From the sequence record NC_049952.1: a stretch of DNA of 48,763 bases, one strand, 5' to 3'. The first letter of the stretch is position 1; each line of letters starts with the position of its first letter. Source of the stretch: Escherichia phage 2B8. The position numbers were made by a program. Below are positions 29,801 to 32,800 of the stretch, piece by piece.

Positions 29801-32800
29801 CATTCTGTTGGGTTGGTGCAGTTGCTTTTAGGAAATGCTATTTACCCCTTAAACGTCGGCTGAAAGAGCTAAAATCCATGCAAAAAATTTACGCAATTTT
29901 GTGTATTATTGTGCAGTAAGTAATGAGCTATTTTCTGCGCAAAAAATGGATGGTAAATTTGTCCGGGGCAGGAAAAATTTTATGGGCGCTAAACATGAAA
30001 AAAGATTCGTATCCTTATTTGATTTGCATGACAGTTTCAGGCCTGATCTTTATTTTCCTTTTCTTCTGGTGGCGGGCAGATATTTACAGGGTCACGTTTC
30101 TTAATCAGAGTATATCCCACTATTACATTCTGTTTAGCATGGGAATAGCTTTTCTGTTATCTCTGTTTTGGGTTAAGAAGGGGATAGTAAAACAAAGCGG
30201 CTGGAAGAGTCTGTCAGCATACCTTAAGGTTTATGCAGGGATGTGCATATTTGCTGGATTTTTTCTGATTATACCCCTTACAACACTAACTTATTTTTTG
30301 CCTGGAGAGACATCGTCTTATGTTGCACCGTATCGGTATACTTCCGGTAGTTCAAAAAGTTGTTCTGGAGCTGAGGTGGATGACCCCGATCTACATGAGA
30401 ATATTCGCATTTGCTATCCGTATGGCAATTATGAGTACGATAATATTATCTATGTTGAAAAGAAAATTAATACATTAGGTGCGGTAGTAACATATGCACA
30501 GACCGCGCGTGATGATACTGAATGAGATAGTATATAGCGGGCAAGTTTTAGTTAATTTATCGAGGTAATATAATTTACCTCGACTCGTTTATTCTGGTAT
30601 TAATATTTCGCTTTACGATCGATTTTTATCTGATGATATCATGCGGTTTTCATATACTGACTTACTGTCTTTTCTCCGTTAGCGATTTTCTCCTGCTCAG
30701 CGATGATTTTATCTTTGGCTTCTAGTTAATTTCGCTCACTTCGAACCTCTCTGTTTACTGATAAGTTCCAGATCCTCCTGGCAACTTGCACAAGTCCGAC
30801 AACCCTGAACGGCCAGGCGTCTTCGCTCATCTATGGGATCGCCACACTCACAACAATGAGTGGCAGATATAGCCTGGTGGTTCAGGCGGCGCATTTTTAT
30901 TGCTGTGTTGCGCTGTAATTCTTCAATTTCTGATGCTGAATCAATGATGTCTGCCATCTTCCATTAATCCCTGAATTGTTGGTTAATACGCTTGAGGGTG
31001 AATGCGAACAATAAAAAAGGAGCCTGTAGCTCCCTGATGATTTTGCTTTTCATGCTCACCGTTCCTTAAAGACGCCGTTTAACATGCCGATCGCCAGGCT
31101 TAAATGAGTCGGTGTGAATCCCATCAGCGTTACCGTTTCGCGGTGCTTCTTCAGTACGCTACGGCAAATGTCATCGACGTTTTTATCCGGAAACTGCTGT
31201 CTGGCTTTTTTGATTTCAGAATTAGCCTGACGGGCAATACTGCGAAGGGCGTTTTCTTGCTGAGGTGTCATTGAACAAGTCCCATGTCGGCAAGCATAAG
31301 CACACAGAATATGAAGCCCGCTGCCAGAAAAATGCATTCAGTGGTTGTCATACCAGGTCTCTCTCATCTGCTTCTGCTTTCGCCACCATCATTTCCAGCT
31401 TTTGCGAAAGGGATGTGGCTAACGTATGAAATTCTTCGTCTGTTTCTACCGGTATTGGCACAAACCTGACTCCAATTTGAGCAAGGCTATGTGCCATCTC
31501 AATACTCGTTCTTAACTCAACAGGAGATGCTTTGTGCATATCGCCTCCCGTTTATTATTTATCTCCTCAGCCAGCCGCTGGGCTTTCAGTGGATTTTGGA
31601 TAACAGAAAGGCCGGGAAATACCCAGCCTCGCTTTGTAACGGAGTAGACGAAAGTGATCGCACCTACCCGGATATTATCGTGAGGATGCGTCATCGCCAT
31701 TGCTCCCCAAATACAAAACCAATTTCAGCCAGTGCCTCGTCCATTTTTTCGATGAACTCCGGCACCATCTCGTCAAAACTCGCCATGTAATTTTCATCCC
31801 GCTCAACCACGACATAATGCAGGCCTTCACGCTTCATTCGTGGGTCATAGTTGGCAAAGTACCAGGCATCTTTTCGCGTCACCCACATGCTGTACTGCAC
31901 CTGGGCCATGTAAGCCGACTTTATGGCCTCGAAACCACCGAGCCGGAATTTCATGAAATCCCGGGAGGTAAACGGGCATTTCAGTTCAAGGCCGTTGCCG
32001 TCACTGCATAAACCATCGGGAGAGCAGGCGGTGCGCATACTTTCGTCGCGATAGATGATCGGGGATTCAGTAACATTCACGCCGGAAGTGAACTCAAAGA
32101 GGGCTCTGGCGTCGTTCTCGTACTGTATTCCCCAGGCCAGCGCCTTAGCGTTAACTTCCGGAGCCACACCGGTGCAAACCTCGGCAAGCAGGGTGTGGAA
32201 GTAGGACATTTTCATGTCAGGCCATTTCTTTCCGGAGCGGGGTTTTGCTATCACATTGTGAACTTCTGAAGCGGTGATGACGCCGAGCCGTAATTTGTGC
32301 CACGCATCATCCCCCTGTTCGACAGCTCTCACGTCGATTCCGGTACGCTGCAGGATAATGTCCGGTGTCATACAGCCACCTTCTGTTCAGAGGCTTTCTG
32401 TTTCAGGAATCCAAGAGCTTTCATTGCTTCTGCCTGTGTCAGTTCTGACGATGCGCGAATGTCGCGGCGAAATATCTGGGAACAGAGCGGTAATAAGTCG
32501 TCATCCCATGTTTTGTCCAGGGCAATCAGCAGAGTGTTAATCTCCTGCATGGTTTCATCGTTAACCGGAGTGATGTCGCGTTCCGGCTGGCGTTCTGCAG
32601 TGTATGCGGTATTTTCGACAATGCGCTCGGCTTCATCCTTGTCATAGATACCAGCAAATCCGAAGGCCAGGCGGGCACACTGAATCATGGCTTTATGCCG
32701 TAACATCCGTTTGGGATGCGACTGCCACGGCCCCGTGATTTCTCTGCCTTCGCGGGTTTTGAATGGTTCGCGGCGGCATTCATCCATCCATTCGGTAACG

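Follow-up and report, generated by a model that had tools for sequence, protein, structure and literature searches.

Rousset et al. (2022, PMC9122126) described the locus between gpA and gpQ of phage P2 and its relatives as a hotspot in which anti-phage systems abound, along with other accessory systems. System #4 in Table S5B of that survey is a single protein without a Pfam match, described as "3 TM" (three transmembrane segments), with 470 occurrences, and is not among the entries of the tested-systems table (Rousset et al. 2022, PMC9122126). Here we analyzed a relative of system #4 in Escherichia phage 2B8 (NC_049952.1; the whole stretch of 48,763 nucleotides is hereafter termed the window), in which a plus-strand gene predicted to encode a three-transmembrane (three-TM) protein lies within the leftward early operon. 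BLASTP against the system #4 representative gave an identity of 52% over 168 residues (E = 3e-57), which assigns both proteins to one family. Similar to system #4 and to old and tin of P2, the homologs are single genes read from the cos side toward gpA, convergent with the early operon. Unlike system #4, the present copy lies not between gpQ and gpA near cos but between xis and exo of a lambdoid phage, where cos, gpQ and gpA are lacking and only a scar of P2 backbone accompanies the gene.

The gene also resembles the envelope morons of lambdoid phages, such as HK97 gp15, bor and lom of lambda, and cor of phi80 and N15. Like these morons, it is additional to the genes of sister phages, which lack it, is equipped with a promoter-like element and a hairpin, has a deviant base composition, encodes a small membrane-associated product and is expected to be expressed in the prophage. 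Cor, Bor and Lom are outer-membrane proteins or lipoproteins. However, there is no sequence relationship between these morons and the present gene, and HK97 gp15 has only 62 residues, compared to 176 residues with three predicted TM helices and a predicted barrel here. The gene differs further in its location on the opposite strand of the early-left operon rather than among the late or tail genes, and exclusion is in this case a prediction. Another protein to be compared is SieA of phage P22, which is annotated and described (PMC10883804) as a 164-residue inner-membrane superinfection exclusion protein expressed by the prophage from its own promoter. Despite a comparable size and several TM helices, SieA has no detectable homology to the present protein (hhalign probability of 0.2%), and its sequence has no periplasmic β-barrel domain.

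The account that we consider the best joint explanation, at slightly less than even confidence, is a P2-derived moron cassette with its own promoter, whose product would carry a periplasmic barrel and protect the envelope of the lysogen. The original prediction, made from the nucleotide sequence, had described an opposite-strand moron in the pL operon that could be an exclusion or host-interaction protein. All that it described in the sequence was confirmed, the moron interpretation is supported, and the guess at a function appears reasonable.

A low-G+C block replaces ea8.5 and ea22

Between positions 29700 and 30750, the window shares 99.9% identity with Escherichia phage 434 (OL657226/7) and 98.9% with mEp332. 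The local order is int, xis, ORF55, the terminator tL4, the plus-strand open reading frame (ORF), a TraR-like orf73, small ORFs, orf63, orf60a, exo, bet, gam, kil and cIII. The plus-strand ORF of 29923-30525 exists as claimed, and each of the neighboring genes, including all those from int to gam, is on the minus strand, leaving the three-TM ORF as the only one that runs against the pL operon. BLASTN against lambda revealed that homology extends to 29750 and resumes from 30724, and that the intervening segment of lambda consists of ea8.5 and ea22, the place which the gene had been proposed to occupy. The tL4 hairpin at the left edge is the last stretch common to the window, lambda and HK022.

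The G+C content is 0.36-0.40 over 29750-30650, compared to 0.45-0.49 on the left and 0.45-0.55 on the right. Lambda, HK022, HK630 and the Stx phages have the flanks without the block, most lambdoid phages lack the block at this position, and among 50,697 phage records the protein is encoded only by 434 and mEp332. The low-G+C block, its absence from relatives, the orientation against pL, the promoter-like element, the hairpin and the single-gene homologs in P2 hotspots together support the moron reading of the original prediction.

The cassette originates from the hotspot of P2-like phages

The family is diverse in P2-like phages and near-clonal in lambdoid phages, which argues for a transfer from the former to the latter. 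In IMG/VR, 64 lambdoid loci, each with an identity of at least 98%, have the same fixed set of neighbors, whereas 14 P2-like loci have identities of 47-80% and belong to several diverged backbones. In all 14 P2-like loci, the gene sits between the portal gene gpQ on the same strand and gpA on the opposite strand, which is the old/tin locus of P2. The same placement was found in Salmonella, Klebsiella and metagenomic P2-like prophages.

When the window was compared with the P2-like locus L102 of E. coli by BLASTN, 29801-30725 aligned in three pieces with identities of 75-77%. The first is a non-coding backbone remnant (Table 1), whose L102 counterpart lies between a cos-like site (7624) and a repeat array. 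The second, 29858-30615, corresponds to the array, leader, gene and hairpin of L102 (76%). The third, 30682-30725, is a remnant of an Ead/Ea22-like gene, the 15-residue out-of-frame peptide of which matches residues 84-98 of a 127-residue ORF in L102 (8622-9005). This ORF belongs to PF13935 (Ead_Ea22, E = 2.7e-29) and neighbors the three-TM gene in the hotspot. At the right junction, a five-codon stump of ea22 is left; the N-terminus reads (V)SEINSQALRE in lambda Ea22 and MSEINYQALRE in the Ea22-like protein of L102.

We propose that a P2-like segment comprising the backbone edge, the three-TM gene and the ea22-like gene would have recombined into a lambda/434-type phage, with the left crossover at the tL4 hairpin and the right crossover at the conserved 5' end of ea22. 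The cassette would have displaced ea8.5 and ea22, and most of the imported ea22-like gene would have been deleted later. From the aligned junctions, Ea22-like genes may represent portable homology for the exchange of cargo between lambdoid and P2-like phages.

The repeat array upstream of the gene is degenerate in the window (Table 1), and a perfect array with two to four copies of TTGTGCA precedes the gene in the P2-like loci. A pattern scan of IMG/VR for TTGTGCA-N3-TTGTGCA revealed 120 loci, 40 of which are P2-like (within L121-L233). In these 40 loci the portal gene is followed by the array at a distance of 330-430 nt, and the three-TM protein is encoded in none of them; the sequences are conserved to the third repeat, at which point wholly unrelated cargo begins at once. 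In P2 (L118, 4450-4481), three copies of ATGCA are found at the equivalent place upstream of the old-tin promoter, and judging from its sequence and annotated transcript starts, the third copy would be the -35 element of that promoter. A single match to TTGTGY-N4-TTGTGY is present in the window, compared to 0.09 expected. Because the array is conserved whatever cargo follows, we interpret the repeats as the edge of a P2-like hotspot and a scar of the donor, not as a binding site of CII. Conceivable roles of the array in P2-like phages are terminase or cosB-like binding, Cox-box-like binding and a promoter element shared by the cargo. A sigma-54 promoter, Pho box, mar box or NtrC site gave no fit when compared by eye with the consensus sequences. 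A role of the third repeat as a -35 element, like that of its counterpart at P2 Pold, was rejected, as this cassette has no -10 element at the proper spacing.

Two further features lie at the left side of the block. On the strand of pL, two terminator-like hairpins are arranged in tandem (29700-29719 and 29731-29750) just downstream of the cassette in the direction of pL transcription, the second of which, the annotated tL4, falls on the left recombination junction. A 56-residue ORF on the plus strand (29749-29919), to which the 434 record assigns a "putative membrane protein", begins within the tL4 hairpin and spans the P2-derived non-coding backbone and the repeat array. The ORFs covering the equivalent region are not conserved among the P2-like loci, and this ORF is probably not a gene.

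The gene starts at position 29995 and is under purifying selection

The reading frame is open from 29923 and, up to 30525, encodes 200 residues; a product of 176-200 residues had been anticipated. The lower figure stands, as it corresponds to the conserved start at 29995, and the 200-residue start at 29923 does not. All the distant homologs, proteins of 169-186 residues, initiate at the equivalent of Met25 (29995), and the nearest non-lambdoid relatives have in-frame stop codons shortly upstream of this ATG, three codons away in L102 and six codons away in L004, L005 and L109, so that 29995 rather than 29923 is indicated as the start. The predicted promoter lies 3' of the ATG at 29923 and overlaps the TTG start of the 434 record, which again favors 29995. 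The 24 codons of the upstream extension are therefore probably untranslated.

It follows that a functional product comprising the full ORF from 29923, or a 188-residue form from the TTG at 29959, driven by a promoter farther upstream, is very improbable. The open frame is consistent with such a product, as are the annotations, which give 200 residues in RefSeq and the mEp332 record and 188 residues in the 434 record. However, no homolog outside the 434 lineage begins anywhere but at the Met25 equivalent, the stop codons of the nearest relatives interrupt the extension, and the extension overlaps the conserved promoter-like element. Moreover, a 223-residue frameshifted variant indicates that the upstream frame is not maintained.

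Comparison with the P2-like homologs by the Nei-Gojobori method gave a ratio of non-synonymous to synonymous substitution rates (dN/dS) of 0.08-0.14, a sign of strong purifying selection. Together with the 76 intact copies out of 79 in IMG/VR, this ratio indicates that the gene is functional.

An out-of-frame ATG at 29982 on the plus strand, with AGGA 8 nt upstream, opens a frame of 41 codons to 30104 that overlaps the start at 29995. The frame, which is that of a 67-residue ORF (29901-30104), was called "ORF-22+" in the old 434 record M60848. This ATG is kept in the E. coli P2-like locus L102 and absent from the Salmonella loci; its frame might have a regulatory role as an upstream ORF or be due to chance.

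Predicted promoter and likely terminator of the cassette

A generic promoter scan yielded no strong sigma-70 site upstream of the gene. We read TTTTCT-N17-TGnTAAATT as an extended -10 promoter with a predicted transcription start near 29966. The 140 nt upstream of the gene are 77% column-wise conserved in five loci whose synonymous sites differ at 59-72%, and the invariant elements of the five aligned regions are TTTTCT, an A-run and G-TG-n-TAAATTT. In addition, TGnTAA(A/T)TT precedes the ATG by 44-48 nt in the 434/L102/L004 lineage, the L026 lineage and the Citrobacter locus L013, and the upstream regions of L026 and L013 are otherwise unalignable. The motif is rare, with two occurrences in the window compared to 3.9 expected on both strands.

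The inverted repeat that had been noticed after the gene is a hairpin with a 9-bp stem at 30560-30583, which is likely the terminator of the cassette. Its 3' tail contains 5 T in 10 nt, a weak T-tract, and as a terminator it is of moderate quality at best. By eye, the stem is partly conserved in the counterpart hairpin of L102, where it shows a compensatory change, a wobble pair and a mismatch, whereas the T-tract is missing there.

The gene runs toward pL transcription, just as old and tin run toward the early operon of P2, and is therefore expected to be expressed in the repressed prophage and to suffer interference after induction. Specifically, its own weak extended -10 promoter would drive it against pL in the repressed prophage, and convergent transcription from pL after induction would shut it down.

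A different mode of expression would apply if the TTGT-N6-TTGT at 29899-29912 were a real CII promoter; the gene would then be a CII-activated gene for the establishment of lysogeny, with a protein produced transiently after infection and not in the prophage. The site was annotated by the depositors of the 434 record, and its repeat pattern is statistically unusual and single in the window. By reading, an AGCTAT hexamer is moreover spaced like the -10 element of lambda pRE. However, the repeats are TTGT, whereas TTGC is present in all three lambda CII promoters (pRE, pI and paQ type), and the TTGC-N6-TTGC form is not found here. Besides, these repeats are the last two units of the three-unit P2-like array, which is present whatever the cargo and in P2-like phages without CII. 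The candidate -10 element is also not conserved in the relatives, unlike the extended -10 element downstream. We thus find activation by CII hardly credible, and retain the extended -10 element as the candidate promoter.

The protein is predicted to be an inner-membrane protein with a periplasmic β-barrel

The 176-residue form has three hydrophobic segments (residues 5-28, 40-61 and 74-103) and an acidic C-terminal domain with a net charge of -6, in agreement with the several hydrophobic helices and soluble C-terminal domain inferred at first sight. AlphaFold2 with an alignment of 20 sequences predicted helices at residues 5-29, 38-61 and 70-101 followed by five strands, with a mean predicted local distance difference test (pLDDT) score of 87. 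Modelled alone, the C-terminal 79 residues adopt the same barrel with a pLDDT of 88. Lys and Arg residues are concentrated at the N-terminus (MKK) and in loop 2 (KKGIVKQSGWK), so that by the positive-inside rule the N-terminus would be inside and the C-terminus outside, which places the predicted barrel of ~75 residues in the periplasm. Two Cys residues 16 residues apart (CSGA...IC; C123 and C140) are invariant down to the most distant members, which fits a periplasmic disulfide bond; the barrel is probably held by this single disulfide.

No family was found for the protein in Pfam, NCBIfam or PADLOC (0 families in the latter). A match in PHROG, phrog_1416, is a 90-residue family of unknown function that covers the last helix and the barrel. 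Structural similarity search using Foldseek against viral structures and a sequence-profile search against PDB were both negative, and no confident fold match was obtained. Small β-barrels of the DUF1093/YxeA and OB-like types (PDB 3npp, 2k5q and 3rd4) may be counted among the closest known systems.

The family is small and extends beyond phages

A search of 5.8 billion proteins retrieved 74 relatives, with identities of 98-99% in E. coli and Shigella and 42-78% in Salmonella, Enterobacter, Klebsiella and Cedecea. When 1.84 billion cluster representatives were searched exhaustively with a profile, only 61 matches were obtained, nearly all of ~170 residues with the same layout. A 3074-residue match of this search (P0124) does not have the Cys motif and was dismissed. 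The family thus appears small and confined to Enterobacterales.

The 434-type copy is present in 915 of 5426 complete E. coli genomes (~17%), always on the chromosome, and at least 80% of the 741-bp query is present in 908 of the 915 genomes with a match. In prophage Sp3 of O157:H7 Sakai, the gene (ECs_0804) is intact while int and bet are pseudogenes; EDL933 also carries the gene. One IMG/VR locus (L115) looks like a chromosomal copy adjoining mntR.

The chromosomal neighbors of homologs outside phages vary. In Serratia (L240, 4333-6510), the homolog is directly downstream of ptsG, and in Klebsiella sp. R390 (L032, 3882-6543) it is divergent from a bgl-type phosphotransferase system (PTS) EIIBCA operon. 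The neighbors are unrelated to these in other genera: the homolog follows a LysR gene in Enterobacter, while Pantoea has fetAB and Citrobacter has rstB-tus at this place. In a P2-like prophage of Klebsiella (L029, 2281-5623), the three-TM gene is accompanied by genes for a 790-residue STAND/NB-ARC NTPase and a 279-residue protein without a Pfam match, which probably constitute an adjoining defence system.

Proposed function

We propose that the inner-membrane protein, with a cytoplasmic N-terminus, three TM helices and a periplasmic barrel, would hinder the entry of other phages at or before DNA translocation, at a step in the periplasm or the inner membrane, and that it would act alone, without a cytoplasmic sensor. 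Its main role would most likely be the envelope-level exclusion of other phages by a protein expressed from the prophage. This reading draws on the autonomous single-gene cassette, the conserved mass predicted in the periplasm and the occurrence in accessory hotspots of two unrelated temperate-phage families. The STAND NTPase found in the same hotspot in Klebsiella also counts in its favor.

Several points weigh against this proposal. Lysogens of 434 are reported in the classical literature to plate lambda normally, and any exclusion would therefore not be aimed at lambda. The literature searched yielded no experiment or transcript map for the gene, and the protein shows no similarity to known exclusion or defence proteins, either in PADLOC or to P22 SieA. 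The expression signals are imperfect, in that the terminator is weak, with a fold z-score of -1.8 (81 nt), and the Shine-Dalgarno sequence before 29995 is poor, the out-of-frame ATG at 29982 having a better one. The cargo of P2 hotspots includes non-defence items such as partition systems and toxins (PMC9122126). Moreover, homologs outside phages occur on chromosomes or megaplasmids of Enterobacter, Klebsiella, Cedecea, Citrobacter, Pantoea, Serratia and Pseudescherichia, those of Pantoea being on megaplasmids, which suggests a cellular function borrowed by phages.

These homologs, stably kept outside prophages in several Enterobacterales, bear directly on an alternative that we consider unlikely, namely a lysogenic-conversion or host-fitness factor unrelated to phages. 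Such a factor could confer immunity to a bacteriocin that acts on the membrane or periplasm or to a contact-dependent toxin, modulate envelope stress or permeability, or promote colonization, and phages would carry it for its benefit to the host. It would be in keeping with the toxins and partition genes of P2 hotspots and with the virulence cargo in the b region of the window and in related prophages. Immunity proteins to pore-forming colicins are usually small and have three or four TM segments, a form that the present protein shares. However, no cognate toxin gene adjoins the gene in any context examined, and the phage copies are concentrated in a hotspot where at least one third of the tested cargo is anti-phage.

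It is rather improbable that the protein is an abortive-infection effector, which would sense infection, depolarize or permeabilize the inner membrane and kill the cell, like single-gene Abi systems or Rex. The gene does form a single-gene system in the P2 hotspot, where TM proteins are usually taken as suicide effectors (Rousset et al. 2022, PMC9122126). However, the conserved non-membrane mass is nearly all predicted to be periplasmic, which leaves no obvious cytoplasmic sensor, and there is no conserved adjoining gene for a partner sensor. In addition, three helices with a compact barrel do not suggest a pore.

Exclusion at the envelope is the preferred reading. A bolder version of it, which we regard as possible though doubtful, is that the protein represents a new class of single-protein superinfection exclusion, in which an anchored disulfide barrel blocks the entry of heterologous genomes, possibly by occupying sugar-PTS permeases of the inner membrane that serve phages as entry ports, and that the cassette shuttles between the P2 cos hotspot and the exo-xis region using ea22-like homology. 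ManYZ is the inner-membrane entry receptor for lambda and 434, and PtsG is that for HK97. The adjacency to genes for glucose-family PTS permeases was set aside as evidence, as it concerns only 2 of ~8 chromosomal contexts (ptsG and the bgl-type EIIBCA operon), and is kept as a weak lead.

Other features of the window

The window has no ORF114, like mEp332, and its b region (22041-27551) carries genes for type III secretion effectors, which identifies it as a relative of 434 and mEp332 rather than the deposited 434. In the deposited 434 genome, such effector genes are present only as fragments. An Rfam scan of 29400-31000 found no RNA family. The coordinates of all features are summarized in Table 1.

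Table 1. Coordinates of the cassette, its junctions and the b-region genes in the window
Feature	Position	Strand	Description
Coding sequence	29995..30525	+	176 residues; predicted three-TM inner-membrane protein with a predicted periplasmic five-strand β-barrel
Upstream ORF extension	29923..29994	+	24 codons, not conserved; 5' of or within the predicted promoter
Predicted extended -10 sigma-70 promoter	29931..29959	+	TTTTCT (29931-29936), 17-nt spacer, TG (29951-29952), TAAATT (29954-29959)
Hairpin, likely terminator	30560..30583, tail to 30593	+	TCGAGGTAA-TATAAT-TTACCTCGA then CTCGTTTATT; 9-bp stem, 6-nt loop
Imported block	29751..30723	.	973 bp, replacing lambda ea8.5 and ea22; left edge at the tL4 hairpin, right edge at the ea22 5' end
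tL4 terminator hairpin of the pL operon	29731..29750	-	Left junction; t-L4 in M60848; terminator-like site in scan
P2-like backbone remnant	29801..29862	+	Non-coding, cos-to-hotspot region; 75% identity to L102 7723-7785
Three direct repeats	29888..29915	+	TTTACGCA, TTGTGTA, TTGTGCA; 10-bp period, degenerate TTGTGCA x3 array
Ead/Ea22-like gene remnant	30681..30725	-	LEAKDKIIAEQEKIA; 77% nucleotide identity to L102 8713-8756
Five-codon ea22 stump	30722..30739	-	GTG AGC GAA ATT AAC TAG (M S E I N stop); right junction, overlaps the orf73 stop codon
NleG	22041-22730		b region
IpaB/EvcA-family protein	24462-25052		b region
OspG/NleH-type kinase	25560-26450		b region
Two ORFs without a Pfam match	22865-23638 and 26676-27551		b region

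Implications

Existing annotations of the gene go no further than "putative membrane protein" or hypothetical, and the family has been catalogued before and not characterized. To this the present analysis adds a corrected start codon, a conserved promoter-like element, the import from a P2 hotspot with its backbone scar and ea22 linker, and a new reading of the CII site. Accordingly, the "CII binding site" of the 434 record should be corrected, and probably also its 56-residue "membrane protein" and the start codon of the gene.

Although the family is the fourth most frequent cargo of the P2 hotspots of E. coli, neither a name nor a domain nor a phenotype is attached to it. Should the protein serve in exclusion or defence, it would be both very common and very compact, and would influence how susceptible clinical E. 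coli and Salmonella are to phages. The P2 scar and the ea22 stump provide a sequence-level example of cargo transfer between two unrelated families of temperate phages, and the evidence from the junctions suggests that Ea22-like genes act as recombination linkers.

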